Source: Amoeboaphelidium protococcarum X5 (taxonomy: Eukaryota > Fungi > Aphelidiomycota). Taken from it: a stretch of DNA of 64,000 nucleotides. Location: assembly GCA_023515725.1 (NCBI GenBank), contig JALDTO010000266.1, positions 929,042 through 993,041 on the forward strand, in the 5' to 3' direction. The notes under the pieces are model-generated. The model worked only from the letters and a program-made list of their open reading frames with translations, was not told the origin of the DNA and made no database searches. Each line of letters starts with the position of its first letter. Within the stretch, counting starts at the first letter, position 1. Of the stretch, positions 8,926-64,000 are shown piece after piece. Both the position numbers and the translations under genes were made by a program.

Positions 8926-9102
8926 GTTGATAGCAGAAGATTAATGCGGCGCGGATGAAAGGAGGAAAACATCTGAATAAGATCCCCTGAGTAAAAAAGT
9001 TATTGTAAACAATATCTTCTCAGGTCACTCACTACTACTGCTCTATCAAAATTCTCACTATTGAAGAAGCACAAGAATTTAAAAATTTAACTCAGATAAT
9101 AT

Positions 9103-9844
9103 TCAAAAATTCATTATTGATCTACCCACGCGATATATCCAGCTTATCCAGCTTTCTGAATAAGGTTTAAACTCTTCTTCTTCAATAGCACCAAAATCGC
9201 CATGTAGATATTAATCTCTGGTGAGTGCACCGAACTGTTAAGCCAACTCTATGTCACCTTCCAATACGACGCGAAAATATCTATTCTTTTTCGTATCAAA
9301 GTGGCTCGCAATAATATATTCGAAGTGAGCACTATACGTCAACTAATCGCGCAATGCAGTACCCCATTCGGTAATTATTGTATTAAAATTGTCCTCACTA
9401 CCACTCACCACTATGTTATACCGCTTAATTGGGAGTGGAGTGATTAATCGCATTTGGCGACTCAAGCGTCTCCAAGTCGGCCCTAAGGGAAATTCAACGT
9501 ACATATCTTCAAATGGAATAGCTTAAGCCTTCTAAGGAAGCCTGTCTATAGCTCTCAACATTGATTATTAAAACTTTGTGACTTAATTGAATTTTACGAC
9601 GTTGGAATTACGCTTAATCTAGATGCTGTCATCCATTTATAATCGCCTCAAACTATAATCTTGAACTACATTTATCATTCGGGACATATTCGTAATGTCC
9701 GTTAGCAGTAAGTCTCTCGATGAACACGACTTCGTTCGTATTCACTTTCATGTATTTATCCTGCATGATAACATTAGATACAAAGTTTATACTGTATATA
9801 CTTTTTAAGCCTACGGAGACCTGAGTCTTACTCGCTTTGTTTGT
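9103..9844 (-). pseudogene. 5'-truncated, frameshifted paralog of the 7162-8925 secreted protein
   Basis: Shares LPQxxQAxPFEDMxVE, LPIKRYNIxV and RVVLEGDxELAQxFGAxTRDQ; +1 frameshift near 9670; upstream TGA at 9845-9847. Confidence 0.75.
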
Positions 9845-12960: not shown

Positions 12961-15900
12961 TCAATCCTGTTCAAAATTAGTCTGCTAGTCGTAGTAAGCG
13001 TAACGCTACTTGATGCTTACCAGAGCTTAAATACAGGCCAGTCTCTTGGCAGCAGCACTGGTGTTGCTATAAGCCTGACACAACTGGTCGTCATCCAAGT
13101 AAATTTTACAAATGGACTGATTTACACCACTTTCGTTACACATAATCTTAACTCTATCCTGAGCTATACCGAGCTTGGAACATTCTTCATTAAAATCGCG
13201 CACAGGATTAGCCAACTTTGAATGGTCAGACTCGATACAATGCCGCTTGATAAATGGGACCAAGACGCTATCACCAATGATCTTCCAGACAGCGTGTAAG
13301 TTACAACCAGAATTTAAATACAATGCACCGACGAAGCTTTCAAAAACATCTCCAAGAACTTTAGGCGCCTCAAATGGCATCATATTAGGATGGATATTCT
13401 AATTTGCTTGAACTGCAAGCCATTGAGTAAACAGGTCAATATCCGTTTGCAGTTGCTGAGTTTCATGCCTAATATATTAGTGCAATCCTAGCTGACATCC
13501 CAATCTAGCGAACGAAGTATTGTTCACTATGACTTGACGAATATCGCTCATATCAGAAGATTAAGCCGTGGGGAACTAATCATGAATATACTTGGTCACA
13601 AGCCAATCTAAAACAGCATCACCAAGAAACTCTAATCTCTAGTAAGACAGCACACTACTATTGTTCTTGGACAAGTGAGTGAAAGCTTCAGCAAAGATAC
13701 CAACATTGATCATCTCAAAGTTCAATTGCTGCTCTAACGCACTGTACTTTCCACTAATCACTTTCTGTAATACTTATTTCTACGCAGTTACAGCAATAGA
13801 ATCCAACTCATGCTACTAAATAAATCCAATTCGAACCAAATACTTATTCACTGCATCAGCATTTCCAGCACCATCATCATCATTAAATGAAAAACAGTGA
13901 GCACCTACTAAACTCTCAAAGAAATCGGCAATCATCTTACTGCTCAACTAATTTTCAACTAGGAGGCGATCATCTCTGCCCATGGCTCTCTTCATACCGC
14001 ACCATCTCCACGTCTTGAGATTTAGGGGAGATGCAATGAGATAGCCAGGCAGCTCATTTTACACTGATAGCTCATACAGTTTGGCATTGCTAACTCTATT
14101 AGCACGCAGAGTACTAAGTCCGCCTTCATCAAGTTGAGGCTGCATTACGTACAGGATCGCAGTGACAATGTACTTCAAGTAAGAATCTCCCAAGGTCTCT
14201 AAGCGTTCATAATTGACATCCTCATTAGCATTAGGAGCAATGAAAGCAGGATATAGCTACTCAATGGATAAACTGCAATCAAACTTCTTCTTGAATTCTT
14301 AAATAATCAGCTGACTCTCAATCTTGTGCAAAACAGAAGGCACTAAAGAGAATAAAGACTGTACATCATCATAGAATTGGACAACATAGCACAACTCTGG
14401 AGGAAGATAGACAAACGCGCGACGTTCATCTTGCCGCTACACTAACCTCTTTGGACGCGAAAGGTTCCGCAGTCCTGGAGCATAAAGTGCCTGGATAAGA
14501 TTAAGATCTGGTCTTTTTAACTTAATTTTATACTTGTCCAGGTAATACTACTCGAATGTTCTGTCATTGACATTGATAAGATCTTCTTCCTATTCCACAT
14601 TGTCCTGATCGTCAATCTCTCCCTCCTCCACACTATCACTTTTCACCTTGTTGACATCAGCACCAATTTACACGGCAGACTAATTTTCCAAAGAGTCAGA
14701 CAACTTGGACTTTTAAGTAAAGTCACTCTTACCACATGATATATACTTGTTCATTGTATGCTGTGCAATAATGTATTAATCTCGCGTACGGTATTCAACA
14801 CATTCGGATAGGGGATGATCAGATGCTTTGTAACTGCAAACCTTTTCAATCGTATCAAAATCTATAGAATATCGCTATTACTCACTATTGTCACCATATT
14901 AATATAGCGATAGAGGAGCGACATAGTACCACTTCTTACCATGCATGGGCAAGGCTGTAGATAATCTATTAACACCATTAAACTAAGTGTCAACACTATT
15001 GATTAGCAGAGTAAATACTTTTAGATCGAATTCCAGAATTTACTAAAACTAAGTAAGCGAAAGCTGTGTCAACTCTTGGCCAGTACAGTCCACTGAGCAT
15101 TTTACAACCTGACCATCTATGTAGACACTAAAGTCACAAAGTTCCGCATCAATTTTAGCGAGAGTTAACAGTCCAAATACGCGACAACTCATACTATTTC
15201 CACCTTATTCATTTCCCATATTTTAATTGATTTTAATCACAGTGAGCCATCTGCACTCAGAAACATCATAATGTATCAGTGGGCGACCATGAACGATACC
15301 AGATAGAATTTCATTCAAACTGAGATACTGGACAAAGTCGACTTCAACGTGTAAACTCTATGCCACAACTTTTCTATAATATTTCACCTTTTTAACGTCC
15401 ATGAACACCTTCTTCTCCGACTTTATGGTGAGCTTAGCCTGCTGCTCTAGTTATTGAATCTATATGGCAGCCTAGTGGTACGCGCTTCTACGAGCAATCA
15501 AATTATTCAACCTCAATCCACCCAAGATTTCCCTAGTAGACAATAGGGATGGCTGAGGCAACTTGAGAGCTATCTGATGTTGTAAACAATCACTGCGAGC
15601 ATTATACTACAGAGGCTATATACTCTACCTTCGATGATAATTGTCCAAACTAAGATTGGAGCAATGTTACTGCACCACCTACATTGACTATTCTAAACTA
15701 AAATCGGCAAATCCCATCAGAGAGAAGATTTAAGAATACAACTCTGGGTCCATTTTTATCAACAAGCCATTGCGACTGTACTATAATCTCTTACTCTCCT
15801 ATTGCAACAGATATTCAACTAATGGCGACTAAATTTATGATGAATGATCATCTCCACTCTCAGTCTTAATAAAGAAGCATTACTGATTAGAAATTACATT

Positions 15901-17046
15901 CCAAAACTTGTTCATGTTCACACTCTCGTCAAATATAATCAATAGATCAACATGACTAAGAGGAGGCTCAGTGGATATAACGATATTACAATCTTGATTA
16001 TTTCCATTATAGTTGCACTTGATCTAATCCAACTTGAGACCATTAAAGAAATCACATAGCAGCTTTGCCGTTGCCTTTCTATCAACAGCAATTAACACTC
16101 TAGGTGGAACTTTACTTGTATCACTATTATCATTCACGGTAATTACTGCAGATTCATCAGTCACACCTCTATCCTATATCAACGATTATAAGATATTGAG
16201 TAGAGAGAACACTTTATCAGAAATGAGCCTCAGGTCTAAATCATTAATCAACTGAAGTAAATTAAGTTCAGGTAAAGCAGTCTTGAACAGCATCAACTAA
16301 TCCACACTACCGCCGCTATTCCCCAACTGCTAATGAGAAAACTCCACCATTTGGGGAATGGCCACTAATTTGAATACACCGTCTTCATCAACATGACTCC
16401 TCTTTAGATGAACTTTAGGCACGGACCGCTTCAAAGTGTTAATGTACTCCAGTGCCAATGCAGCCTAAAAGTATAGGCCCAACTCTTTCATATCATGAAC
16501 CATCTTAATCATTTTATTCATCTTATTGACGGCAGAGGTATCGCGTGCAGCATTATGTAAATTGACCAACAAGGACATATAATGACTATACGCGACATCC
16601 ACATCACAACCAGATTTTAATTAGAATTGGGGAAACTAATGATGAGCATTATTGGGAGAGTACAGCTGAACGGAACGCGTAATTGGTTCATCAATGTACA
16701 ATGTACGAGACTATTGTGACAGAGAGGATGAAGTGAAATTTACAACAATCACTTGCTTCTATGACACATACTTTCCAGGTACATTGGCAGCAGACTCATC
16801 ATCATCAATAACAATACACTTGACACTGTGGATCATGTCAGAAGGGGTTGAATTGAAAGATACCAGAGAAGTGTCAATGTAATGTACATAATCACCGGCA
16901 TTTCCATAGATAACGACAGATTTTGAGTACAGCTCACACAGAACTGCAATCAAAAATTATTTAAATTACAAACTGCACAGAACTCTATGTAGATCTTACT
17001 GCAATTTTTACACTACTTGCTACACAAACTATTGTATGGTGTCCAT
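12961..17046 (-). CDS. Dicer-like RNase III protein with degenerate helicase region, PAZ-like region, tandem RNase III domains and dsRBD (1361 aa, intronless)
   Basis: NYERLETLGDSYLKY, SKMIADFFESLVGA, SYQRLEFLGDAVLD, APKVLGDVFESFVGALY, C-terminal NPVRDFNE...AAKRLAC. Confidence 0.9.
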
Positions 17047-17391: not shown

Positions 17392-18773
<1,382 letters not shown>

Positions 18774-39279: not shown

Positions 39280-39702
39280 ATTATTCCCCACACAATCTCT
39301 GCTTAAAACTTTTCAAATAAAATGAACCAAAAGGCTGTAGCAATAGTTGGAACCTTTCAAATCAAATAGGTCAAATATGGAATAAAGAAGAAACAGAAGC
39401 GAAAATTCACTGTCCAGAAAACAAGTTGTGTTTCAATGAATGATCACGTCAATAACATTATCTGGTATAAAGATCATAATATTAACATTCAAAAGAAATC
39501 AATCAATCAATCAACACTGAAATTCTCCGAATGACAGAGGAAACAACGCGTTTCAAGAATATTATTATCCATGAGTGAATGAGTGAGTGATTGACAAGGC
39601 ATTTACAGTAATCATCAACGCTAAGCAACTTGATGATCGATTCTGTGCACGTTCGTAAAGAAAGAGCGCGCTTCTTCAATCATTCATTCCCTCGTTTCGT
39701 TC

Positions 39703-39843
39703 TTTCGTTCGTTCGTTCTTTCGTTCGTTCGTTCGTTCGTTCGTTCGTTCGTTCGTTCGTTCGTTCGTTCGTTCGTTCGTTCGTTCGTTCGTTCGTTCGT
39801 TTGTTCGTTTGTTCGTTTGTTCGTTCGTTCGTTCGTTCGTTCG
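39703..39843. repeat. (TTCG)n tetranucleotide microsatellite, ~140 bp
   Basis: Direct reading, with a few TTTG variants. Confidence 0.95.
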
Positions 39844-40026
39844 GTGAAACACGTCGATTTCTTCTTCCTTTGAAGATCGCTTTGAGGCGTTTCCATTAAT
39901 GGTGTCGTCTTCATTCATTCATTCTTTCTTTTGCTGTATTTTTGGGAGGAAAATAGACTTTTATCTGAAATATTTATTCCCTCTTTTTTTTCTAGAAGAA
40001 TTAACTTTCATTCCCAGTATAAATTA

Positions 40027-47979: not shown

Positions 47980-49691
47980 GCACTTATCCTCCGCTCACCG
48001 TTTGACCTTATCTCAACCACATCTGGAATTATCTGTTGATTTGACTGTGATTGATGATCTCCAGATGTACGCGTTTCTGGAGCATTGTCAGCACCATCCT
48101 AAGATTATAATGTAGTGATCAAAAGCAAGTTGTCTTACGTAGATTAGACTTTACTCTATTATGTATATGCATCAACAACTCTAGGTGGGAATGAAGCGTG
48201 GATTCGGTGAGATAAGGCATCAACTTGCTATAATCGCTGCACAATTTTCCCCCATCTATCATTCATCCGTTAGGCCAGAACAAGCTTCGAACTCCAAACA
48301 CCAGGCTAAGAAACTGATTTAAATAAGTCAGCTACAATAACTATCTAAGATTTGATTAACTATAGACTCATGTATACAAAGTAACAATTCTTCAAGGCAA
48401 CGCTATCTGGCATGAGCAAACTGTCGGAGTTGCATAGTATCATCATTAACCTGAGCTATAGAACGAAAGTTGCCATGAAGCAAAGGCGTAAACTTCGGTA
48501 AATCTACAAAATCAATAAAATCCTCGCCGTAATCCAACTTAATTTTGAAAACCAACTCATTGAATTATCGAACCAACTTAGCAATGTTTACGCCTCTGGA
48601 CTTCAGAGCTCTTTCGAAAACCTTCTTCTTGAACTAACTGGAAGTCTACTTCGATTTATAATCTAGAAGAACTCTCATCTCAACTAATTCACTCTAAATA
48701 GATTCTAAAACAACTCGAAATCTCTTATTTGTGAATGCGATTTTGGTCACCTTATACTCAGGGTTCCCCACTGTCCATCGATTTGCTAGATTAATACCCA
48801 ACTAATTCTCCAATCTTTAAACTTGTATGATTATGTTCGAATTATAAGGGCTCTCTTACAAATCCTCCAGATACTTAATATACAATTCATAACGCGTCCA
48901 TTATTGCTGACCACCTGAGCGGCCAAGATCGGCAGGAGTTCTTTATAAAATCTCTATGCATTTATAGTTAACAGAAACGTCTTGAGATTACAGTGATGGA
49001 TGTGCGTAAAGATATTCTTCTAGAACAAGAAGTTCTTACTCCGCGTTCTCGTATCGTTGAATAATTTACATAACGGTCTTATCATTGAGCTCTTAGTTGT
49101 AGCTTTAAAGAACAAACTCAAGAATCTCTTCACGAGTGGCCAACGAGACGTTCTTCGTGATGTATCCGAAGTTTCCAATCACTGACCAAAGGCTCTCATC
49201 AGATCTCCAGCAGTCTTTCCCGAACGTAAAGAATACTTGCTGGAGTAAACTTCCTGGCACCCGCTGTGGTGCGCATATAGATGGAGCGCCGGAACCAACG
49301 ATTCTACACCGCTAGTATCGATATCAACGCGGCGAGCAGAATTCTTTATCCACTAACACCCCACGTCGTAATAATTAGTTGGATCTCTTGTGGGACGCTT
49401 TCTCTTAAAAGACTTTCTTAAGGTCTTCTTCCCTCTTCTTTCAATAATATTATCACCAGGACGTGCGTTAATATCGATCCAACCATCATAGTCCGCCAGC
49501 TAGTAGATATCGTGATTGAGTAGATCTTCAAACTAATCCACGTGTTATCTCCCAGCCGGAACGACTCCCGCTTTGGCATCTTGGACAGTATCAAATTTAA
49601 GACGAATTAAATGCTCAGGTGCTACAGGGATATCTGACATCAATATCATAAATAATAATATGAGGAGTTTGAAAATTACATATAAACGCAT
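47980..49691 (-). mobile_element. Decayed Kyakuja-Dileera-Zisupton (KDZ) transposase, internally deleted and frameshifted
   Basis: YYDVGCQW..VPALHLYAHHSGCQ..GKTAGD/SDESLWS..TKNVSLATREEIL; LENQLGINLANRWTVGNPEY; RALKSRGVNIAKLVRQFN; RQRCLEEL. Confidence 0.75.
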
Positions 49692-51198
49692 TCTTGAATT
49701 TACCTTAATCCTTCCCAAAGTCTGAAGATGTATTGCTAGATTTTATTTAGGATATTCCATCGACTGTTTCTTTAAGAAAGCATTTAATGCTTTTATGTTT
49801 GGAGAAGAAGTATTTGAAATGCATTGATATACGCCCTCTTAACTGCGTGCACTAGAAAATGCGTGCAAGCACGGTCATATGGTCTTTAGTGTGAGTAAGC
49901 ATATTCCACACGTAAACTTACATCTGAGATTGACTAATGACTGTAGAGGAAAATGTCACCAAAAAAAAATTGAAATAGAGATAGGACACGTCAAACAACC
50001 AAGTTGCAGTGTAACTACACGAGACTTCCAAAACTTCTTTTCAAGAGCAATATATAAGCGCTAACTTTAAAGTAGATGCTTGCGAAAGTATGAGGAGCCA
50101 CCAATATAGCAAACAATCTGAGAACGACGCGGCGAATCCAGAGGCAGTACATTTTGACTTATTTAATAAAGACACGTACAACTTGATGACATCCAGCTAT
50201 ATAGCGTATTTTGGCTACTTTGCTGTACCGGAGACATATCCAAGCGTCAGCAAAGCTTTGAACAATCCATACTTCTTTGATGTTATATGTTTGCAAATTT
50301 CGAAATCGCGGTCAGCAACACCATTAGAAAACAAACATAATTTAACAGAATGCATAGACTTTGTGCAACTAAAATCTACAGAGGATGCAGACAAATTTAT
50401 ACCGCACTTATATTCTAATTGATGCGATCTTAAGCGCTGATACAGGTGGAATTACTTGTCGCGATGCACTTCAACAAAGCAATCTTTACAGAACTATAGA
50501 CAGTCATAACATGTAAGACATCTGAGTTAAGAAAGTCCTTTATCACACACAGAACAGCCGATATCAACGGCACAGTCGTGATGCTTGAAATAGAGCTTAT
50601 CGTTACAAGCCTCCACGCAATCACGAAAAGTAATGGTGGGATCAGGTCTGGCATTTCTCCGTCTAAATGACTAGCTAAACCCCCTGGCTTTCTTCTATCT
50701 TTTATTCTCCCTCTTATTCTCCGCCATTTGGTCACCAGTTACACGCTAAACACGTCAAGACCAAGCAAATCGTTCAACTCAAGATCAGCCATCTAGTCCA
50801 CTCCACCTTCATTGGGTTATAGCTAATTACTGTGGCGTTTAAATCGGAGCAGATGATCAGGTGTTACAAGTAAATGATATCAATCTTCATGTTTAAACAT
50901 TCGAAAGTGGACTCTTACAGAAAACAGCATTATTGAATTTGTTCGCTGGCGATGGCGTTTTCATAGCAGGCACAGCTTTACTCTTGATTTAAGAAATCTT
51001 CTTAGATCCATATTTCTCATAAACAGACACTTTATATCGTCGATGTTGCTTTCTAGGTATCTTTATTTTAGTCATGACTGTATAATTGTCAAGCGAAACG
51101 ATCTAAAAGGGAAGAAATAGTTTTTCACAATTTTCTTCGTTTCAGAAACAAAGCTCATGATCGCCGCGCGAAAAAATTGTTAGTTCACCACTACTGCA

Positions 51199-52875
51199 AT
51201 GCCGCCAAGCCATGCACACCCACTACTACTCGGCACGTCCGACTTTGACAAGATTATTGAAAAGGATGCTCTATTCATTGACAAAAGTCTCTTTATAAAG
51301 GAATTCATGAATGATGGCTCCAAGGTCGTTGCCATTCTTCGTCCGCGTCGATTTGGCAAAAGCACCAATCTGTCAATGCTCAAGTCATTCTTGTCATTGA
51401 ATGCCCAATCTAGTCATTTTGATCGCTATCTCATCGGCAAGGAGAGTGAAATTGTATAACAGCATTGTGGTAAATATCCTGTTGTAATGCTTGATCTCAA
51501 GGACTGCAAAGGTGATTCATGGGAGCAGATGTACAGCTCTGTTTGGCTCTGTATTCGCTAAATGGTTTTGCGTCATCGACACGAATTGGCCGAAGCAATT
51601 GCACTACTCTCAAGAGATATGGACTTCACAAGAATGACTACTCACGCTAGCGAAGTCGTTGTCGGTTCATCACTTAAATGGCTTACCCGCGAGTTGAATG
51701 AAAAGTACGGCAGGCGTGTTGTTGTATTGGTGGATGAATATGACGCGCCTTTAAACCATGCATTTCGTCAAGGTTACTATAATAAGGCCTCAGAATTCTT
51801 TGGTCTGCTGTACTCTTCGGCGTTGAAAAGTAATGATGCTCTGGAGAAAGCCTGTTTAGTGGGCATTGTAGAAGTTCGAGGCGCTGGTATTCTATCTGGT
51901 CTTAATAATATTCAAGTTTACTCGGTCGCTGATAGAAGATATTCAGCCTTTTTTGGATTCTCAATGGATGAAATTGGCTCATTGGTTCCTGAAGAATCGA
52001 CTAAGAAGAATGTCAAAGACTGGTATAATGGATACTGTATCGGGAATGATTTGCTCATCAACCCTTGGTCGTTTATGTGTTGGTATAGCCGTGATTTTTT
52101 TGATTCCTACTGGGCTGGCTCGTCATATACGGAAACTATTGCTACAATTCTCAAACCACATTTAAAATAATCCTTAATGGAGATCTTTGCATTGCTATAC
52201 GATCAGAAGCAGATGAAAGTGTCTAAACTCAGCTCTCAGGTTAATTACTCAAACGAGGATTGGGATACCGATGGGATTATTCATTTTCTCATCCACACTG
52301 GCTACCTGACTTATCGTGTAATTGATGATGATTCATTTAGATCTGGCGTAGCTTGGATTCCTAACAACGAGATTCGTAGTAATTGGGAGTCAAATATTAA
52401 GGATCTCTTGCGTTAACAATTCGTACCTCAATTTGGGTCTCGTATTGAAGAGGTATTTACTGCAGAGACTCCGAATATATCGGATTTGCAAAATGTGATG
52501 CAGGATATGTTGATGTTTTGCTCTTCACACGATTTAACGAAGAAGTATGAAAATTCGGGCCACGTTTTCTACTTTGGGGCATTTCTTTCCATATTGCATT
52601 ATGGAGTGAACATCACAGTGACATCGAATCTCGAATCTGGTCTTGGCAGGCATGATATCCGTATCCGATTTCTTCATTTGAAAAGGGTTTTCATATTTGA
52701 ATTCAAGCTTTCGAAGCGTGAAAGTGATCTTCAGGAGGATGCTGAAACGGGCTTGAAACAAATCATTGATAGGAATTATGTAGCCGATTTGCGCGATTGT
52801 GAATGCTTCCTAGTTGGCGTTGCTTTTTACGGCAAGAAGTTGTCTGAGTTGGCAGTCAATAATATCCAAGTATGA
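51199..52875 (+). CDS. AAA-ATPase-like plus PD-(D/E)XK nuclease protein (AAA-ATPase_like/PDDEXK_9 architecture), intact and intronless
   Basis: GTSDFDKII..FIDKS..RPRRFGKSTNLSML, VLVDEYDAP, SGLNN, WYNGY, NPWS, GYLT, IPNNEI, SNLESGLGRHDI..IFEFK..QIIDRNY. Confidence 0.9.
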
Positions 52876-53100
52876 CATAAACATTGGTTAACTTTATTGT
52901 CTTGTCCTTCTAATTTCTCCTCTATCGGGCTCTATTTCTTCCCTTTCACATATTCTCTTTTCCGCTTAAGAAGTAATATCTTGTATCTGACTCTTTTAAA
53001 ACAAATAAAACGCTTGTTTTCTTTTGCACCGGTAGTGTTTTGCACCTTGCACCCGGAGAAACGCACCGAACTCGCTTTGTTACAATCTCGACCGTCTCGC

Positions 53101-55533
53101 ATGTCTGGCAGGAAGCGTTCTAGAGCAGTGTAGAGTGACTCGTAGCCATCTGGAGGTGGTATCACCACCTCCAACAGTAGTACTGGCATCCCAGCCGTTG
53201 ATGAGTGTGCTGGTGTTGGCAGTAGTGTCGGCGTATCCGCCTCCTCAAGTTCTGGTCTGGCTGGGTGCGAGGCTGAAACAAGTGTTGTTAGCATGAATCA
53301 AACTGCTGATATCACTTCACAAAGTTCTGCTCAAGTCAGTGCTGCTTTCAATAGGTAGCTGGAGAATGAAGATGAAGATGACGACGACGATTACGACTCT
53401 GATGATGGTCTGGATGATGAGCAGTTGGCGAAGAAGGTGAAGAGACGCAAGAAGTCGGAGAACAGCCATGTGTATCGCATTGAAGCGGCGTACAAGTATA
53501 AGCTGGATGAAGGCATTGGAGAGACGTTGAAGCTGCTGAGGTTGACTCGATCCGACGTATCTGTGCCACTCACTGGCGGTAGGCCTTTGGCTGTGAATAG
53601 TATGTAAGCCTACTAGAAGCATTACAGAGGATTGCGGTACTTTTTTGCGCTAATTGGTGACTACAGCTCGAGTTTAATGCTGCTTCCTAACCCCCCGCAG
53701 TACACACCGTCAATGAACGCCAAGAGCATCATTTTGTTTATCAAGTTCAAGCGTAATGAGAAGGGTTCTTTGCTAAAAGACGAGAATGGCAACGCTGTGA
53801 AATGTGTCTATGGGCACGATATCAAGTGCTAGGGTGGTTGGAATATGCCACAGAATGTTGACCAGTTGTTATCGGCTGTCTCTGTGCTGCATGATAGTCG
53901 TAATTAGAGGGGGGAGTACAGAGATATCTGCGAAGAGTGCATCCAACGTTCTGAGCGTGGTGATAGATCTGGCTGTCGGTTCCATCCGATGGCTCCTCGT
54001 ATTTGGCTGGGTGGAGATCCAAAGAATTCTTCCCTCATGACTAACATGTAGAGATTGAACTCCCGCGATGGATGCAGCTACGTGTCCGAAGGCAGCTAGC
54101 CGCTCACACCTTGGGAATTACTACGTCTCCGCGAGTATTTCATCTCGAAAAATGATGCGAAGTCATTCATGATGTGGACGATGATTATCGTTAGTATCAA
54201 GCTATTTCTGCGCAATGATGAAGTCACCGATTTGAAAATTCATGATCCTAGGCTGGAAAATTGTCTCAACAAGGATCTTGCGACCTTTCAAAGTGATGGC
54301 AGTATATCTTCCCTTGCTTTCTACATTAAAGGCAAGTCTGATCGTGTTAGAGTGTGCTTGACTCTTTGGACGGATTATGATGTGCCCGAATTGTGCCCGG
54401 TTCGTGCGCTTTTGACGTGGATTTTTATTTCTGGGATTAGAACTGGATTCTTGTTCCCTCAAGAGAGTACACTGGATGCTGTGAAGCAAGTTGGGCATGC
54501 GGCGTACAACATCTCTTACGTATCTTATCATAGGCAGTATCAGAAAGCTTGTAAGATTGCTACCGGCAATCCCGATGGTAAATTTGGTACGCACACTAGT
54601 AGGAAGACTGGCTATTTGCTTGCTGTTTGGGGAATGGGATCAGAGATTGACATCACTAAGAGTGCGCGACACGCTTCGTCCGCTAATGCCGCATTGTATA
54701 AGAAGGATGCTAGCTATTTGCTAGAATTAGCGAAGACTAGACGTTTGGACGTGTCTTCCGTGGTAAGCAAATTCAGATCAGCCTACTGTGAGTAGCTATA
54801 GATGGCTCGCAGTCTGAATGCTGCCCATTCTAGAGGCAATTTTTGTCTGCAGCAGGTGAGTCAAGAGATTGTTCGTAGCTTATGTGGATTATCTGATGTT
54901 GATGCAGTTGGTGGACCTAGAGTGATTTACGATGCACTTCTCCAGTTGCAGAAGAAAGAGACTGTGCTGCAGCTTATTGAGGCAAAGTTGAAAGAAATTG
55001 CACCTAATGCCACTCCGGAGGAGATTAATGAGCTGCGTAGGATGCTTGAGCTTTATGCGAATGGATTGATTGCTGCCACTCAATCAGCTAAGTTGAAGTA
55101 GCCAAAATCTACTCTGACTTCTCAATAATCTTCTTCCAGATAGTTACGTGAACAAGCTGCGGTTCACTCTGATGATGAACTCTATGAATCCGATGAAGAA
55201 GACACTGACGTAGCTGATGTTGTACCTGCCATCACAGCTGTTCAGTAGGATGAAGTTGTGAATGATATGCCTGGGAGAGAGAAAGTGAGAAAAGCGAAGA
55301 CTGCCATGGCGAAGTTGGAGGCCATTCTTGCAGTGGATGATCCTGGCTCAACCGTCGGGTTATCAGCTGGCGCCAAATCATTCTACGTGAAGCAATACTG
55401 CCCGATCATGAAATGTCTGAGAAAGCACTTTGGCGGTGATTTGGATAAGTTCATCGCACATTGGGGGAACTTCAAACCAACTAGCTTCAAGACAAACAAT
55501 TGCTCTGGTACCATGGATGAGTGTAGTATTTGA
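53101..55533 (+). mobile_element. Crypton-type tyrosine recombinase transposase (810 aa), intact
   Basis: Catalytic residues FLRNDE (R), KGKSD (K), GTHTSRKTGY (HxxR), SARH (H), ALYKKDA (Y); LCPVRALL; Cys/His cluster CEEC..GCRFH..GDP. Confidence 0.85.
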
Positions 55534-55674
55534 ACAAGACAGATAATATGGAGACTGAGATTGAAAGTGGATTTAATACAAAAAGTTTAATGCAAAATCA
55601 TTGAGGATTTGTTTGAAACAACTGACTTGTCTGTTTTCTGCGAGATCACCGTCGCGCGCTCGATCGCTCGCGCA

Positions 55675-55994
55675 TTCTTCCAACGTCAACCTTAACGGTT
55701 TCCGTTTTTGCACTTTGCACTTTTAACAATAAGAGCATTTTATTCATCTCAAGCTTTCTTTCATTTCTATAATAGTTTTTACAACTTGGTAAAAAAAGTG
55801 AGTAAAATGTAGTTTATAAAAAGAAGTTCTAAAACTTTGTATTTAGAACTCAAAATTATTTAGACTAACAAGACTTCAAGGATTTACCAGCTTTTTACAT
55901 ATCAATGTAAAACTAATACGATGAATTAATAACTGGTAATCCGTATATAAAAAGATGCTTGATATTCAAATGTTTGTAGATACAGGAAGGTTGA
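55675..55994 (+). pseudogene. 5'-truncated small two-TM protein (SLATT-like) at the viral junction
   Basis: ILPTSTLTVSVFALCTFNNKSILFISSFLSFLQQFLQLGKKSEQ...YDELITGNPYI; no upstream in-frame ATG. Confidence 0.4.
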
Positions 55995-56031
55995 TTAAAA
56001 AATATTATCTTGTAAAGAAGTAAAGACTAAA

Positions 56032-56766
56032 ATGGAAGGTATTACTGAGAAGCAAATAGTGTATTTACACTCTAAATTTAGAGATTAAGGTAGCATTTCG
56101 AATCCTCAGTACATCTTAAAAACTCCAATCACTTAAGCAAAACGTGTGAAAATTAAGAGACTTCTTATTCCACTAAGTTTGTACACCTTTGACACTCGTA
56201 ATTAAAAGTTTAGTATTCAAGAAGAGACTTCAGCCACTGTTTTCAACTTTACAATTCCTCAAGGATTTTACAGCAGCACGACACTTCCAGATGTGCTGGA
56301 AACTCTTATAAATGCATCCACCACTGGAGTGTTCACTATAACTTACAATACACTTACAAACACTTTCACCTTTTCAAGTACTGAATCGTTTAGATTTGTA
56401 AGTGTAAGTTAAAATGAAGCTTACTATGAGTTGGGTATAACAAGTGATTAGATAGGTGGAGTTTACAGTACAACAGTCACAGGACAAGACTAAATAGATT
56501 TGTCAAGTTCATGTAAACAACTTTACATATAGTCAAATGTAGGAATTGCAAAAGTTCATAATACACAGAAGAATATAATGGCCTGTATAAACATCCCTTA
56601 AAGTAGTGTAAACATTGGGTTTTATTAAGATGACGGTGGTGATTATATGGACATAAACTAGTCTCAAGTTTCCACATTGGACTTTACACTTTACGACTCC
56701 CAATTCAGACCTATTGTTTCAATGTTCAAAGATTGGAGCATTGATATTATATTTGAACAAGAATGA
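56032..56766 (+). CDS. Minor capsid (penton, single jelly-roll)-like protein
   Basis: Beta-rich 244 aa with the pattern YLHSKFRDQG..LIPLSLYTF..FTIPQGFYS..L..LIN..TYNTLT..ELG..IDL..LYIQSN..LDFTLYD..DWSIDIIF, typical of PLV/virophage/NCLDV pentons. Confidence 0.72.
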
Positions 56767-56782
56767 AACTGAAGTTTACACT

Positions 56783-56817
56783 TCAAAACATATCAAAGTA
56801 ATAGTCTTATTTTTAAA

Positions 56818-56856
<39 letters not shown>

Positions 56857-57373
56857 GCTGCTGCTGCTGTGGCTCTTCCTCTTCTTCTTCTTCTTCCACT
56901 TTTTCAACCTTTTACTTTTTTACAGTCTTTACAGGTTTCTTACGAACCACTTACCTCTTTGGTTGTTGAGGTGGCTCAGGTTTCAATAAGTTTGATAATT
57001 TAATAAGACTCTTTTTATCAAGTTATACTTTTTACTTACTTGGTTTAACAAGCACCTTCTTCTTCTTCTTCTTTTTATTCACCTTTTCACTTTTAACACT
57101 TTCAATTGAAGAATCACTTTGACTTTCACTTGAACTGGAACTACAGGAACTGGAACTGTCAGTATCACTAGATTCACTTTCACTTTCACTTTCCTGTTTT
57201 GGTTTTGTTTTTTGTTTTGGTTTCTATTTCTGTTTCTTCTACCTTACAATTTCAGGCTTTTTCTTTGGTTATACAGTTTTAAATTTAGGTTCAACTTCTT
57301 ATTAAGCTCCACAATATCCACAAAACTCCACTTTTTATCCAATCTTTTTAAAACAACTTTCACACACTTTCAT
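56783..57373 (-). CDS. Viral zinc-ribbon protein with Lys/Ser/Glu/Gln low-complexity tail
   Basis: MKVCESC..FCGYCG; poly-Q encoded by (CAG)5(TAG)12; ends at TGA. Confidence 0.7.
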
Positions 57374-57500
57374 TTTAACTTGTCTTTGATTTTACTATAA
57401 TGTAAGAAAATAATTTAAAAATTGATTCATATATCAATTCAAATTAAAACGAGCTCAGTTTGATTTAAAAAATAAAATCTAAGTATAGTAATAATAAAAA

Positions 57501-58541
57501 ATGACATATTAAAACTTTTTGGCTGACAGGAAAAGCGCGTCAAGCAAATACAATGCCGAACAACTATGGGATTTCCTTGGAGATGACCTTTTAAATCTGA
57601 AGACTTTGGAGGACAAGGAACGCGTGAAGAACAAGATTTTAACAAGCGACACTTTAAAAGACACTGTTAAAAAGAGTTTCATTTCAACCTTGAACGCTTA
57701 CTTAAAAACACCAGCTTTGAACCTGTACGAACACACAGATAGAGATTTGACGATTAGATTAAATGAAGAATACTAACAGAATAAAGAACCAAAAAATGTT
57801 CATGAACACACTTAGTTAAATGAAAAGTTTTAGTAGTATTGTCATAATTTAATGAACAGAGAAAAGGTTGGTTATAGTGAATATTCACAAGCTCTTTTAA
57901 TAGCATTGTGCTTGACACAAGCCCCGAAAAGAACAGCGGATTACTTCAACTTGTAATGGAAACACATTGATATTAAAAATCAAATTATTAATTGGCCTGA
58001 GCTTTCAAAGGTGTAAAGAGAAGCTGAGCCGTAGAAATATAAATATAATACTACGATACACCAATTAATTGAAAAGATTAATTAGAGATTTGATTTGGAA
58101 AGTGAACAGTTTGTGATTGAATACTAGGGAAATCGTCTTGATGACAACGGAGGGTATGTAAAGTTTCTACGTAGAGCAAGTTAGAAGATTTTAGAATAGT
58201 CCTTGACCGGTAATGATTTCAGGAAGATTTGGGTGTGTAAAGTTCACTTTGAAAATATGAAAAACCCAAAAAAGTTATACGATAAATTACAAGAGACAGC
58301 TAAAGACATGGGAAACAGTTATAACACACTACAAAAACACTACAACATTCATAATCCTGAAACAGAAGTTGAAGCTGAAGAAGCTGCGGCTGAGGTAAGT
58401 ATTGGAACACAAACAGAGCCTTGTAAACTTGAAAACTATTTGAATCAAATAGAATCTGTGATGAAAAGATTCAATATAACTGACCCTTTCAAAGCACGTG
58501 AATTTCTGCTTCTTTGTAAAAATGACGTCACAACTCAGTGA
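57501..58541 (+). CDS. Viral tyrosine recombinase/integrase
   Basis: QAPKRTADY (R), LSK (K), TGNDFRKIWV (xxxR), AKDMGNS, LQKHY (Y). Confidence 0.78.
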
Positions 58542-58546
58542 TTTTT

Positions 58547-58570
58547 CGATTATCGTGTTTTCGATAATCG
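58547..58570. terminator. 9-bp perfect hairpin between convergent viral genes
   Basis: CGATTATCG-tgtttt-CGATAATCG in the 40-bp gap between two TGA stops. Confidence 0.4.
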
Positions 58571-58581
58571 TTTTTTTGATT

Positions 58582-59490
58582 TCAGACTGTTTTGAAAATA
58601 GCTGTAAACAAGTGAATTAATACATCTACAGCCATACTATTACCAGCTTGTTTATACATTTAAGAGTCGCTAACTACTTGTTTGAAAGACGGGGAGAAGC
58701 CTTGTAAGTTTAAACATTCTCTGGGCAATAAGAAACGATTAAGTGTGGTATAATAGTATCTATTACAAAACGTAACCAGCGTAGGACATATTTTATAACC
58801 TTATACTCCCCAGTTAAAATCAGTAACTATATAATCTTTCTAGTAATTGATTTAATCCAAGTTTTTCAATAGAGTTTTATTCTTTCTATCAGTACTAGAA
58901 TTTCCTTTAAAATTTTTACACATCATGCTTTCCAATGACGTCATTGGAATTTTAGGAGGTGTTTGATAATCGGTAATCTAAAGTGATTTCTTGATTCCAA
59001 AAATAAACAGTCTTTTTCGATTTTGCGGTAAACCGTAATCTTTAGCGTTCAAAATCTCAGTGTAAAGGTTGTAAACCTCGTCTTTTTAAAGCTCTGTTAA
59101 AAGGTAATTATACGCCGTTCCATTCTATGATTTTACAAATCTTGGCACATTTTCAAGTATGAAAATATTTGGTTTAATAGTTTGTATTGTCTTGATACAC
59201 TCTTTCATCACTTCAGCTCTTGGGTCGTCAAAACCACGTCGCTTCCCGAGCGTGCTGAATGATTGACATGGGAACCCACATACGTATAAATCAATCTATG
59301 GAAGTTTTGAATGGTCTCTTGTTAAGATATCATCATAGAAATATTCTGGTTCGTAATTAGCTTGAATACTTTTCTTAACAAATTTATCCACGTCGCAGCT
59401 GAATACATGTTTAAATGGAATCTCCATTCTTTAAAGAGCTTATATCGGAGCTTCAATACCACTACAGTCTGTTCCAATTCTTAGAACCAT
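58582..59490 (-). CDS. C5-cytosine DNA methyltransferase (prokaryote/virus type)
   Basis: TDCSGI (motif I variant), DLYVCGFPCQSFS (IV), ILENV (VI), YGLPQNRKRLF (VIII), YKQAGNSM (X). Confidence 0.93.
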
Positions 59491-59578
59491 CTTTAATCTA
59501 AAGTAGTGGAAAAATTTGTTTGAACAATCGAATGGATTGAAAATAATTTTATTATTAGTAGTAGTAAAGTAAAACAAA

Positions 59579-61114
59579 ATGGGTAAGGTTATTAACGTTT
59601 ATCACACTTCTTGGAGTAATTATGGAAGAAATTTTCAAGTTGCTGATTTAGGCAAGTAGATAGATGCGGGCGTTAGTGATGTGTCTTACGCGTTCTTTAA
59701 TTTAGTGTAAGAAGCAAACGGTTGGATTATAAAGAGTGGTGACGAATGGGCTGAGTTTTAGAAGACTTATGGAACTGATGGAAAGGCTTCTGTAGGTAAA
59801 CCTGACACGTGGGAAGATTCATCCGCTAACAACGCCGGAAATTTTGGACAACTTAGAAAGTTGAAGGAGGCTGGGAAACAATTTAATCTTCATCTGTCTG
59901 TGGGCGGATGGACATGGAGTAAAAACTTTTCACTAGCTGTAAGAACTCCAGAGTCTAGAACAACTTTAGTCAGTTCAATAATCCAATTCTTTAAAGATTA
60001 TCCAATTTTTAATGGAATAGATTTCGATTGGGAGTATGTAAGCAATGACGGTAAGAATTATGGTAACGAAGGGAATATAGCACACCCTGACGATTCTAAA
60101 AATTTTCAATTGTTTTTGAAATAGTTGAGAACTGAAATGTAAACCAACGGGTTTGGAAGTTACATTATTGGTATGTGTGTTGTTGCAGCCCCTGAAAAAG
60201 CTGTGTTTGATATTGAAAATGTACATCCGCTTGTTGATGAAATAAGAATTATGACTTACGATTTTCATAGTGGCGGTTTCGGTGAAAAAATTACAAGACA
60301 TTAAACAAGTACAAGAAAATCACAGTTTAGTAATTATTCAGCTGAAGAAGCGGTTGATTTTTACCTTTCTAAAGGTGTGCCGTCTGAAAAGCTTTTAATA
60401 GGCGTTGCTTTTTACTCTAGAGGGTTTTCCAATTCTCAAGGTTTGGGTAAACCTGCTGATGGAAACAGCCCCGACTTTCAGTTTGCTGAAGAACCCGGTG
60501 TTGTGCCCTATCATATGTTACCACGTCCTGGTGATACTGAGCTTTTTGACCCGGAAGCACAAGCAGGGTATTCTTACAGTGAAACTAGAAAAGTCTTCAA
60601 TTCATACGATACTGTTGAATCTGTAAGGGCGAAATGTAAATTAGTAAAAGAGAAGAACTTGAAAGGTATAATTGTTTGGGAATCTGCAGGTCATACTAGA
60701 GATGTTGGAGGTCCCCGTTGTTTGATTACAGCTATGAGAAATGAGTTTTCTGGTTAATCACCTGTTAATCCTCCGCCTGTAAATCCTCCTCCCGTTGTTA
60801 ATCCTCCTCCGCCTGTTAATCCTCCACCTGTAAACTCTCAGGTTTCTTAGTGGAATCCTTCAGATTTTTACAAAATTGGTGAAAAGGTTGTCTATAACGG
60901 TAAGGTGTATGAATCTTTGAATAGTTTTTAGAGTATTTCTGTGTGGACTCCTGATACAGTTCCAGCACTCTGGAAACTTGTAAGTGATAATACCCCTTCA
61001 CAGCCAATTGAAAAACCTGTTGAAAACCCCGCTGACCAATCAGCTGAGAATAAATATTTGAGATTTATTTAAGAATTACTTAAACAAATAACTGATTTTT
61101 TAGAAGACAATTGA
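59579..61114 (+). CDS. GH18 chitinase with Pro-rich linker and CBM5/12-like chitin-binding module; no signal peptide
   Basis: SVGGWTWS, FNGIDFDWEY (DxDxE), MTYDF, GVAFYSRG, SYDT, IVWE; VNPPP repeats; WNPSDFYKIGEKVVYNGKVY..WTPDTVPALW. Confidence 0.93.
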
Positions 61115-61184
61115 AAATCAATAATTGAAAAATGAAAATCAATAATCAAAATTGATTTAACCAAATCAATTGTGTGAAAACACA

Positions 61185-61466
61185 ATGAATCAAGAAAATA
61201 TTGAGAAATTGGTTAAAACACTGTCAAAAGACTTTAAAGTTTGTAAAGAGATTAACACTTATAACGGTAAGGAATTTAAGAGAGTACTTTACAAGTAATA
61301 TAACGACGAATTCATTAAAGACCATTCCAAGAGGATACTGTAAGAATATTTACACCGCTGGTTAGAGTTGTACAGTATCACTTTTAAGTTTAAGAAGGAT
61401 TATAACGAATTACTTAACCAAGTTATTAACAAACTTGAAGAGATTGACGAACCTTGTTCAATTTGA
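61185..61466 (+). CDS. Hypothetical viral protein (93 aa)
   Basis: ATG-to-TGA frame open under TAR=Gln, filling the gap between the chitinase and HNH genes. Confidence 0.55.
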
Positions 61467-61468
61467 TT

Positions 61469-61972
61469 TCAACCTTTAGGAAATTCAAGAATGAAACGAT
61501 GCCCTTAACTATTTAATTCTTCCATTGTTTAGTTTCTTATAATTACTGCGTCTTCAAAGTGTTCAAAACAACCGTAAGATTTTTTTTAGCGGTTTATATA
61601 AAAATATACCCGCCATTTCCCAGATTATTTACACCAACTGATATTACATTCCCCTGAAGTATTGTTCTTTTATTTTCCACGGTATTGATTATTTTGTTAG
61701 GGTGTAACTATTTCTAAATTGTCTAATCTGTTATCATCTTTAACTCCGTTGATGTGGTTTATATGCATACCTTCAGGTATTTCACCTACAAACATTTCGT
61801 AAATTTTGCGGTGAACTAAAACCGTCTTTTTCACATTAGTATCCCAAAATTGTAAATATCCCCGGTTATGTAAGCTCAGCTTTTAAAATTACCCCTATTT
61901 TTTATTAAAAATCTAACCATTAGAAAAATACCAATAAAAGTCGTCTTCAATACTTATAACACCTTAATTCAT
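61469..61972 (-). CDS. HNH endonuclease with C-terminal AP2-like domain
   Basis: RGYL..VHRKIYEMFVGEIPEGMHINHINGVKDDNRLDNLEIVT..N, NNTSG..ISW..GKWRV..YGCF..AVIIRN. Confidence 0.88.
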
Positions 61973-62019
61973 TTTTATCTTTAAAATACCTTAAAGATAA
62001 AACTTTAAATTAAAATATA

Positions 62020-62352
62020 TCACTTAACTTTCATAAGTATACCTCTCTACTAATGACCGTCAATTTTTTTCATTTTGATAGCGTATTTACCTTCCAACAT
62101 TTAACTAAATGAACAAGTAAATATCTTCCTTGGTAGATTAGAAGCAGGGTTCACTCTTTTATGATATTCATATAAGTCTCTAAAAGTTATAAAAACATAA
62201 TCTTTGTCTTTGATACTATATTACTACAAACTTTGTTTGTTTAACTCTATTAACTCTAGAAACCCCTGTAAATAAATCTACGCTTCTTTCACTCTTTTAT
62301 CGTAAAACAACTGGTAAGCGTTTTTAAATGCGTCTTTTACTTGTTAATCCAT
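62020..62352 (-). CDS. Hypothetical viral protein (110 aa), possibly winged-helix like a D5 C-terminal domain
   Basis: ITFRDLYEYH..IFTCSF..KKIDGHQQRGI. Confidence 0.5.
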
Positions 62353-62489
62353 ATTTTTGTATCTTTTAATTACAGTAAAATATATTCAATTCTTTAAATT
62401 ATGTTTAAGATAAAAATATTTTCTATTTGTTATAATTAAACTAATATATATCAATTTAAAGATTTCAAAATATATAATATTAAAACAAA

Positions 62490-64000
62490 ATGGTGAATTC
62501 AAACTTGGATTAAAAACTGGAGAATTTCTTTAACAACCAACCTTTTCAAGATACCAAAAGTAAGATTGAAAAGGTTAATGTGAAGAAATTAAACTACTTA
62601 CTCAGTAATAAAGATATTGATTAAAAGCACTTGGAACAGTTGAAAAAGTATCAACAAAAAGTTAAAAACTCCAAGAAAAGTGTGAGTTATTGTTACGCTA
62701 AGGATAGAACAAAAAGTGGTTTTGAGAGACTTTACGCGAGAGACGGTCAAAGTCTTCAAATGATGGAGAAAGAAATTAGAGGTTTTTTAGCTGATGACAA
62801 TTACTATGACGTTGATATCTCTAATAGTCACCCGATGATGGTTTACAATCTGTGTAAGTCTCTAAGTATAAATAGCCCTTTGATACAAGATTATATTGAA
62901 ACTAGAAGCGATTGGATATAAATGGTACAAGATGATAATTAACATTTGGAACCGTATTAGTGTAAAGCTGCTATACTTGGTGTTCTAAACGGTATGAGTC
63001 TGAAGGGAAATGAGGAGATTGAGGGAGATTTTAGTTGTTTGAAAGACTTTAAAAGTGAGGTTGACAATATTAGAAATTCCATTGTAAACTTCCAACAATT
63101 CAAATTCATTACTAGAAAATATAAAGAAGAATCAAACTTGACCAAGTTTTCAAGCGTAGTAAATCACTATGAAAGAAAATTGTTGATGAAATTACAAGAA
63201 GAGTTTACAGCCTTACATTACAATGTAGACGTCTTGATTCATGACGGATTTTTAGTGGACAAACACAAGAAAACGGAAGAGTAGTTGTAAGCTGACATTT
63301 AGAGTGTAGTTCAGAAAATTAGTGAAATATACGACTTGAAATATCTTGAACTCAAAATAAAGCCTTTTGAACACAGTTTCAGGGACTACAATGAAGAAGA
63401 GTAGAACGAAGAGAAAGAGTATAACTTTTTCAAAATGGCAGACAAATTCATAGAACTTTATGGCGATAGATTTTGTATTAGTGGAGGTATCTTATTCTAC
63501 AAGAACGATGACGCCTTTTGGATTGAAGACTCAGAATAAGGTTATCTCAATTCTTTTTTGACAAAATCCAAATTTTACAAAGAAGTGAATGAAGATTCTT
63601 AGGTGTTTGAACATTTAGTAAATTGTGATAAATTTTACCAACAACTTAGAAACAAGATGATTATAAAGTAAAAGGATAGAGTGTTTCAACCAAATCAACA
63701 GCTTTTAAAAGATAACGAAATCAATACTTTTCCAGGATTTACACATCCTACTAATTTACAAGTAAATTCAAGTGAGATTCAAGAATTCATTGACCTTGTA
63801 ATGAACTAAGCTCAAGGTGATTAAGAAAGATTTGAGTTTTTAATGAAATGGTACGCCAACGTATGTAAAGGTAATAAAAATGAGACTTGTATCATACTGT
63901 TTTCCGATACTCAAGGAACTGGTAAATCTTGTGTGAGTCAATATATTGGAGAAAAACTTCTACCTCAATTCTTTTACTAGACAAGTAATATGGAATCTGT
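62490..64000 (+). CDS. TVpol (PolA-family primase-polymerase) fused to SF3/D5-like helicase; partial at window end
   Basis: RLYA..SLQMMEKEIRGFLA..YYDVDISNSHP (motif A), CKAAIL..LNG (B), VLIHDGF (C); INTFPGF..FLMKWYA..ILFSDTQGTGKS (Walker A). Confidence 0.85.

Follow-up and report, generated by a model that had tools for sequence, protein, structure and literature searches.

An 8-kb block of a likely Polinton-like virus in a genome assembly of the aphelid Amoeboaphelidium protococcarum, with hints of a helper giant virus

DNA viruses of fungi and of their closest relatives are scarce in the record. We describe here a block of viral genes at the right end of a 64,000-nt stretch of DNA (hereafter the window; assembly GCA_023515725.1, contig JALDTO010000266.1, positions 929,042 to 993,041 of the forward strand) from Amoeboaphelidium protococcarum, whose genus is assigned to Aphelidiomycota (NCBI). 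Among the systems closest to it are Polinton-like viruses (PLVs). An integrated PLV has been described in the chytrid Spizellomyces punctatus, together with two chitinase-rich PLV groups, the S. punctatus group along with the Chi group, which are defined by capsid clusters (PC_0050 or PC_0076) (PMC7805220). The S. punctatus group (VC_60) carries a GH18 chitinase in 11/25 cases, proposed to dissolve fungal walls, and mostly has pPolB (16/25) and a VLTF3-like gene (24/25) (PMC7805220). The Chi group (VC_45) has a V13-like helicase (14/25), a recombinase (8/25), an HNH gene (8/25) and a C5-methylase (4/25) (PMC7805220 Table S6); its chitinase cluster is annotated as a carbohydrate-binding protein and not as GH18, and PMC7805220 found neither an integrated member nor a host for it. 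PgVV, which has a haptophyte host, a known helper and isolated particles, relies on this helper for transcription and carries the motif AAAATTGA ahead of its Yrec, its TVpol and a homing endonuclease (10.1101/2022.07.28.501842). Endogenous viruses of the oxymonad Streblomastix strix, which belong to the Metamonada capsid group, use translation table 6; that survey excluded Fungi, and no aphelid is named in its three supplements (PMC10120064). A 2026 preprint whose main text leaves aphelids unmentioned reports PLV ATPases from many chytrid genomes (10.64898/2026.06.19.733378). Such viruses commonly carry TVpol fusions (10.64898/2026.10.13.758929), and a giant virus for which restriction systems are predicted is accompanied by PLVs that have methylases and HNH genes (PMC6459981).

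Set beside these systems, the block is best explained as about 8 kb of a likely PLV of A. protococcarum, written in the code of its host, present in several probably endogenous copies and likely dependent on a helper in the manner of PgVV. We give this explanation as a whole a probability of about 0.6. Its parts differ in strength: that the block is part of a PLV is highly probable, that the virus is endogenous somewhere in the genome is very likely, and that it depends on a helper is only slightly favoured. The features on which the argument draws are the following (lengths in amino acids, aa; ORF, open reading frame).

55663..64000, unstranded: GATC-free zone over the entire viral block; the window has its last GATC at 55662
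55738..56031, unstranded: non-coding viral sequence 5' of the penton gene, internal to the virus in the deep-coverage copy (X3 contig)
56032..56766, plus: penton, minor capsid protein, single jelly roll, 244 aa (P0001), by profile, predicted fold, Foldseek and structural alignment
56783..57430, minus: ORF of 215 aa with a zinc-ribbon-like CxxC pair and a low-complexity tail (sub-threshold DZR and zinc-ribbon matches)
57418..57425, plus: AAAATTGA, an early-promoter motif of giant viruses, 83 nt ahead of the start of the recombinase
57501..58541, plus: probable tyrosine recombinase, 346 aa (P0002), from PF00589 at E 0.0048, below the cut-off, and motif positions
58582..59490, minus: C5 cytosine DNA methyltransferase, 302 aa (Pfam E 3.9e-58); its target-recognition region (about 58719-58928) differs between copies
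59579..61114, plus: GH18 chitinase with Pro linker and CBM5/12, 511 aa (Pfam E 2.2e-61; DxDxE intact)
61148..61155, plus: AAAATTGA, 37 nt before the 93-aa ORF
61185..61466, plus: ORF of 93 aa, no known family in Pfam and PHROG searches
61469..61972, minus: HNH endonuclease, 167 aa (PF13392, HNH_3, E 9e-19; PHROG 99, E 3.9e-43)
62020..62352, minus: ORF of 110 aa, no known family in a Pfam search
62060..62067, minus: AAAATTGA, within the 110-aa ORF and 95 nt before the HNH start
62490..64000, plus: replication protein (P0006), PolA-like (TVpol) motifs followed by a D5/SF3-type primase-helicase region, open at its 3' end (PHROG 1156, motifs)

The block is AT-rich, with a GC content of 0.319 over 55738-64000 against 0.399 for the host part (1-47000), the step from about 0.40 to 0.32 falling beyond 55.7 kb. 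Nine intronless, single-frame ORFs make up 91% of it when read with table 6; eight are complete, from ATG to TGA, and the ninth is open at the window end. The same ORFs are broken up under table 1, and the poly-Q of the 215-aa ORF is encoded by TAG. The share of TAA/TAG among Gln codons is comparable in the nine viral ORFs (0.38-0.79) and in nine host genes (0.28-0.75), so that the virus uses the code of its host. This host is A. protococcarum, because the proteasome ATPase of the host part (17392-18591) is 100% identical to three records of that species and 85% identical to A. occidentale. A first-pass annotation, made by a model from the letters and their ORFs, had read the block in much the same way, as an AT-rich, intronless, table-6 stretch of a probable aphelid genome with an intact penton, C5-methylase and GH18 chitinase and with no major capsid protein or packaging ATPase in the window, and all of this is borne out. 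Three of its gene calls hold in part. The C5-methylase, GH18 chitinase and HNH nuclease identities are confirmed by their profile matches, and Pfam detects no AP2 domain in what had been called an HNH-AP2 gene. The tyrosine recombinase is probable, from its sub-threshold Pfam match and from R/K/R/Y-type motifs seen by eye; it has no match in PDB or phage proteins and none relevant in NCBIfam. In the predicted TVpol-SF3 fusion the helicase half stands, residues 301-488 matching PHROG 1156 primase-helicases (E 3.5e-7) with a Walker A at residue 476, and the TVpol label of the N-terminal part is putative, given for its motifs and confirmed by no tool. A single-sequence fold of this protein was unusable (pLDDT, the predicted local confidence, of 37), and searches of PDB, NCBIfam, phage and plasmid proteins gave no match to it. 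Neither a protein-primed PolB nor an RVE integrase, the genes that mark a Maverick/Polinton, is found by Pfam among the nine ORFs.

The penton identity is confirmed by profile and by predicted fold. A homolog search returned 778 relatives, mainly of about 240 aa, and a profile built from 134 of them matches the PBCV-1 penton variant P1v1 (E 2.2e-16) and also an EhV penton; 40 of these 134 family members match DUF5901. The predicted model has a pLDDT of 95. Among its best viral models are proteins of Tetraselmis viridis virus S1 (TM 0.79), which we take to be a PLV. The contig L103, 2.6 kb long, has a relative of the penton family member P0013 (39% identity) adjoining an A32-like ATPase (Pox_A32 E 0.033, a weak match). 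The penton fold, this penton-ATPase pair and a gene set that matches published PLVs together lead to the PLV identity. The L103 fragment itself (1-2638) is PLV-like and is binned in a Bacteroidota metagenome-assembled genome (MAG) of a prokaryote genome collection. Scans of viral contigs for loci related to P0006, P0012, P0001, P0004, A3, P0282 and P0011, and of metagenome contigs for loci related to P0001 and P0006, found none; these scans use back-translated peptides, which genes with TAA/TAG codons may escape. A word-indexed homolog search likewise returned nothing for P0001, nor for P0006 among longer proteins.

In gene content the block shares traits with several of the described systems. 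It resembles the S. punctatus group, which has an integrated member in a zoosporic fungus, in its GH18 chitinase and minor capsid protein, and differs from it in the putative TVpol-type helicase, the probable recombinase, the table-6 coding and the aphelid host, a separation drawn from gene content, code and host. With the Chi group it has in common a chitin-binding gene, a putative V13-like helicase, a probable tyrosine recombinase, an HNH gene and a C5-methylase. As in PgVV/Gezel-14T, there is a probable recombinase, a putative TVpol-helicase, a homing endonuclease and a penton, with AAAATTGA before recombinase and endonuclease; unlike in PgVV, there is a chitinase and a methylase, no motif in sense before TVpol and no known helper. 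Like the Streblomastix strix viruses, it has its genes in the TAA/TAG=Gln code of the host. The chitinase is of the GH18 type, like PC_0214 of PMC7805220. By analogy, the virus may function like a PLV of the PgVV type equipped with a chitinase of the chytrid-PLV type. The first-pass annotation knew of few such viruses from zoosporic parasitoids. PLVs integrated in zoosporic fungi and bearing a chitinase have been published (PMC7805220), and so have endogenous viruses that use table 6 (PMC10120064); what appears to be new is the aphelid host phylum. A literature search, with subscription papers mostly outside it, found no report of Polinton-like, virophage or capsid-bearing viruses in aphelids or Amoeboaphelidium.

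The virus is present as several diverged copies and is probably endogenous. Viral contigs 92-99% alike to the window occur in the sequencing runs X1 and X3, related pieces are found in X5 (a sediment metagenome), X6, X7, X10 and X14, and a second chitinase (P0286, 93% identity) lies on an unplaced contig of 1,741 nt. Among the substitutions listed in viral ORFs, third codon positions account for 27 of 38 (P 2e-6). Three short coding indels were checked (33, 15 and 3 nt) and all keep the frame, the 33-nt one being a duplication in the recombinase gene of other copies. The copies thus look as if they were under purifying selection. A 20-nt deletion in other copies ends just before the AAAATTGA at 61148-61155. 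The contigs of X1 and X3 skip 58719-58928, with undetermined letters in between, which corresponds to methylase residues 188-258; X7 has a divergent contig in this region and coverage drops there in X5. In the domain layout of such enzymes these residues, between motifs VIII and IX, form the target-recognition region. Hence the specificity of the methylase may have been swapped between copies.

The left edge of the virus lies against a transposon, and two further features are needed here.

52981..55729 (right end approximate), plus: high-copy tyrosine-recombinase transposon of 2.75 kb, left neighbour of the virus, recognised by depth, a recurring left edge and its copies
55730..55737, unstranded: 8-nt spacer between the transposon end and the virus-matching sequence (an X16 record stops at 55729, an X3 record begins at 55738)

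Read depth is about 3500 in the transposon against 70-190 in its flanks, figures that are not copy numbers. Its left edge at 52981 recurs in four runs (X3, X16, X7 and X10), with 0-2 differences in the four, and the exact protein is present on at least 12 contigs, with 10 further records at 99-100% identity. The element is therefore very young and of high copy number. It encodes an 810-aa protein (53101-55533) that is tyrosine-recombinase-like (PHROG integrase E 0.013, plus motifs), its ends share a 4-nt inverted match, and we presume it to be Crypton-like. Several gene models join its protein to unrelated sequence by annotation. GATC is also the most under-represented 4-mer of the transposon (12 vs 19). 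Copies at 99-100% occur under both locus-tag series of the species, and in run X7, which may be an RNA run, a loose end with poly-A at 55597 may mark the end of the transposon transcript; we did not use it as evidence. A relationship between the viral recombinase and that of the transposon was considered and rejected, as the two proteins are unrelated on comparison.

Virus-matching sequence starts at 55738, right after this transposon, and not at 55675, where the first-pass annotation had placed the start of the block. Neither position is likely to be the end of the virus: a 3,117-nt contig of run X3, whose depth of 265 resembles that of the block elsewhere, matches 55738-56772 apart from 16 differences and continues to the left with 2,082 different letters. 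For this reason 55675 was rejected as a virus end, and the virus spans no less than the 8.3 kb seen here and some 2.1 kb found upstream in another copy, where a PLV genome would have 15-30 kb. No matching terminal repeat or att-like repeat was found in the window, in which neither virus end is seen. The 8-nt spacer may be the overlap sequence of a recombinase. Three origins come into question for the junction: recombination involving two copies of the transposon, insertion of the virus at the end of the transposon, or a joining of two loci by the assembly via the repeat. We lean towards a real junction, and integration at this site is unproven; the recent integration here that had been proposed is unproven too, as the junction runs through a repeat and other copies continue differently. 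The window's chitinase is recorded on a scaffold of 2.51 Mb. Run X16, of the same organism label and from another sample, covers the transposon and almost nothing of the virus, a contig hole that proves nothing.

Three features go beyond the first-pass annotation, namely the transposon at the edge, the absence of GATC from the block and a promoter motif of giant-virus type; the last two are among three extra signals that point to a helper virus that has not been seen. Of GATC, about 21 sites are expected in the 8.3-kb block under a Markov model on trimers and 0 are observed, and it is the only 4-mer absent. Synonymous codon shuffles of the block give 11.8 +/- 2.8 sites, and 0 of 2000 shuffles have none; host stretches of 8.3 kb have 31-42. 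The site is missing in all three reading frames, and an Asp codon before a C-codon is GAC in 8/8 viral cases, whereas GAT is used in 81/132 elsewhere (P 7e-4). GTAC is also low, with an observed-to-expected ratio (O/E) of 0.38. Two candidates were rejected: that AT-richness caused the void, since 43 sites stand in the 8.5 kb of host DNA richest in AT, and avoidance of TGCA/TCGA, which are low against the codon shuffle but agree with the Markov expectation. As a yardstick we took 102 viral loci with the methylase's first motif, a redundant set with many giant-virus MAGs, and scored the 81 that reach at least 3 kb: the median O/E of GATC is 0.76, and a single locus (L019) is free of it. Voids in viruses with this methylase are uncommon for GATC and not exotic. 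The DNA around the closest methylase relative (L061) has a GATC O/E of 0.97, which is a weak point against self-erosion by the methylase.

Melbournevirus and PBCV-1 encode GATC-cutting enzymes, and for such restriction systems a role against virophages has been proposed and found unsupported in Acanthamoeba mimiviruses (10.1101/2019.12.21.884833). In pandoraviruses the palindromic 4-mer AGCT is wholly absent, and restriction did not explain the void (10.1101/712018). The present case is alike in that a palindromic 4-mer is wholly missing from a eukaryotic DNA virus, and unlike in that the virus is small, with 8.3 kb seen. A restriction enzyme that cuts GATC, of the helper or of the virus itself, is the most likely cause, at roughly even odds; erosion by the virus's own methylase is less likely. 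The literature search found no report of GATC avoidance in virophages. Among the loci of the yardstick, L061 (8431-10924) has its methylase directly behind a GH18-CBM5/12 chitinase gene, a pairing as in the window with an only distantly related chitinase. L019 (1-10406) is a viral contig with an SNF2-like helicase, a GT25 and a 2002-aa fibre-like protein, has 0 GATC vs 20 expected and carries a methylase 59% identical over 132 aa to that of the window; by its genes it is giant-virus-like, a candidate relative of a fungal-host giant virus. Voids of other palindromes were seen in L055, L025, L011 with near-duplicates, L057 and L001 (CTAG O/E 0.0, CATG 0.04, TCGA 0.07, GGCC 0.10).

All three copies of AAAATTGA in the block lie 37-95 nt ahead of a start on the same strand, those of the recombinase, the 93-aa ORF and the HNH gene. 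The motif is thus upstream of 3/9 genes in sense and of 0 in antisense (P 0.004 by dinucleotide shuffles of the nine upstream regions). By analogy with PgVV it may function as an early promoter, and together with the void it is a hint of a still-unknown helper giant virus. Short perfect hairpins stand between viral genes at 58545-58570 (recombinase/methylase) and 61971-61997 (HNH/110-aa ORF), which we presume could be polyadenylation hairpins like those of mimiviruses.

In the cycle that we propose, integration and excision of a circular form would fall to the tyrosine recombinase, a route through a circle being on record (PMC4642659). On infection by a helper giant virus, the helper's RNA polymerase would read the early promoters at AAAATTGA (recombinase, HNH, small ORF), and the TVpol-helicase would serve both priming and unwinding in replication. 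Packaging of the DNA would be the task of the penton together with a capsid and an ATPase whose genes are expected beyond the window. With its chitinase the virus would breach the chitin-containing wall of the host cyst or spore, and the loss of sites together with a changeable methylase would protect from restriction. The copy in the window would probably have been joined to host DNA via the high-copy transposon, whether two copies of it recombined or the virus went in at its end. In its full form this would make the element a living, helper-dependent PLV of aphelids, the sister group of fungi; its genome would record an unseen giant virus through early promoters, total loss of GATC that escapes helper restriction and swaps of the methylase target domain, and it would enter the chromosomes via young transposon copies. 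In that form the reading is less likely than not.

Several observations weigh against the reading of the block as a piece of a helper-dependent, endogenous PLV. There is no major capsid or packaging ATPase gene among the nine ORFs of the window, and neither the recombinase nor the TVpol has a profile match above the cut-off. The best solved structure for the penton is that of a giant virus, PBCV-1 (Z 18.4, root-mean-square deviation (rmsd) 3.0, 238 residues aligned). The best relatives of the methylase are viral enzymes 45-53% identical, many in giant-virus MAGs, and the closest (L061, 53%) sits in such a MAG beside a GH18-CBM gene. With L019 looking giant-viral, and with giant viruses known from zoosporic fungi, some having polinton-like integrases, in a text that leaves aphelids unmentioned (PMC13533422), the block could be read as part of an endogenous giant virus, Mycodnaviridae-like or of the Imitervirales. 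We consider this improbable: Pfam and PHROG searches show no core gene of giant viruses (RNA polymerase, PolB, their capsid, VLTF3) among the nine ORFs, the penton is minimal and has its relative beside a small A32 ATPase, recombinase and TVpol-type helicase are a pairing of PLVs and virophages (PMC4642659), and no relative of P0002 or P0006 came up among 103 loci examined. A virophage of the Lavidaviridae in the strict sense is very improbable; its major capsid protein and maturation protease, if present, would lie outside the window. Foldseek does rank the mavirus and Sputnik pentons first by E-value (mavirus E 5e-11), and Sputnik has TVpol fusions (PMC4642659), but the structural alignments with the pentons of mavirus (Z 11.7, rmsd 6.2, 228 aligned) and Sputnik (Z 10.9, rmsd 6.2, 229 aligned) fall well short of that with PBCV-1, and TM-scores are 0.40-0.50 to virophage pentons against 0.79-0.84 to the best viral models. 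The penton is closer to those of PBCV-1 and PLVs, which makes a strict virophage less likely; of the original label, Polinton-like/virophage-like, the first half is supported.

The same PLV may also have been joined to the host only in the assembly, through the 2.75-kb transposon, with the virus itself lying elsewhere in the genome or episomal. The junction falls at the end of the deep repeat and passes through it, and none of the contigs listed bridges it (463 and 93 further rows lie beyond that part); the X3 contig has other sequence left of 55738, the second chitinase copy is unplaced, and near-identical viral pieces occur in the sediment metagenome, where the transposon is barely covered. 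Such a chimera is nevertheless doubtful, for the window is without any N and its copy differs by 1-8% from the deep contigs, as expected of a distinct minor copy; X1 and X16 also have loose ends that resemble what we take to be mate-pair junction adapters, a library type able to span the repeat, which we count against a chimera. As for the copies, the 38 substitutions are the listed part, next to which 598 and 645 further rows exist. Helper dependence meets its own objections. The window-wide count of AAAATTGA is ordinary (9 vs 7.6 expected), the motif is absent in sense before the TVpol gene, and it was noticed before it was tested, which makes the result a lead. The GATC deficit has mostly moved to GATT/AATC (136 vs 99.7, O/E 1.36), a true O/E of up to 0.14 is compatible with the data, and some 4-mer at or below an O/E of 0.2 is found in 22/81 yardstick loci, 8 of them near-duplicates. 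The virus could then be an autonomous PLV that replicates in the nucleus with the RNA polymerase of its host, AAAATTGA being chance or a relic and GATC having been lost via its own methylase. The excess of GATT/AATC fits the decay of methyl-cytosine as well as it fits selection in AT-biased DNA, the host code is fully adopted, and the Mycodnaviridae paper does not mention an aphelid giant virus (PMC13533422). We regard autonomy as possible and rather unlikely, since the motif is enriched by position before the same gene classes as in PgVV, and since the methylase's closest relative sits in DNA of ordinary GATC content and only one of the 81 loci is free of the site.

If an intact, chitinase-bearing PLV is present in an aphelid that can be grown, the fungal host range and the wall-opening role proposed for such viruses (PMC7805220) become directly testable. 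The GATC void and the early-promoter motifs predict a giant virus of aphelids and make it possible to test concretely whether giant viruses turn restriction enzymes on their small parasites. A. protococcarum is culturable and parasitises pond algae. If the reading is true, the helper must cope with the TAA/TAG=Gln code, and the trio could be cultured in an algal-pond parasite; as the host attacks pond algae, its viruses are relevant to natural control.

Left of the virus lies a variable patch rich in transposons, judging from pieces of a KDZ (Kyakuja-Dileera-Zisupton) transposase at 48300-50750 on the minus strand (PF18758 E 1e-9, CxC1 weak) and from a joint in X1 and X3 contigs that skips 49552-51013. 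Next to it, 51043-52875 holds a gene with AAA-ATPase-like and PD-(D/E)XK nuclease domains (PF09820, PF08011) and diverged paralogues in the runs, a possible horizontal transfer of a gene type that we take to be common in bacteria. Rfam finds no RNAs in 45-64 kb. In the host part, a Dicer-like gene with a PAZ and two RNase III domains and no detected helicase domain (12961-17046, minus) suggests that the host likely keeps RNA interference. Two adjacent, related-looking ORFs without a Pfam family (7162-9741, minus) are possibly a lineage-specific tandem family, and a long TTCG tetranucleotide microsatellite (39664-39871) stands upstream of a phosphotransferase-like gene.

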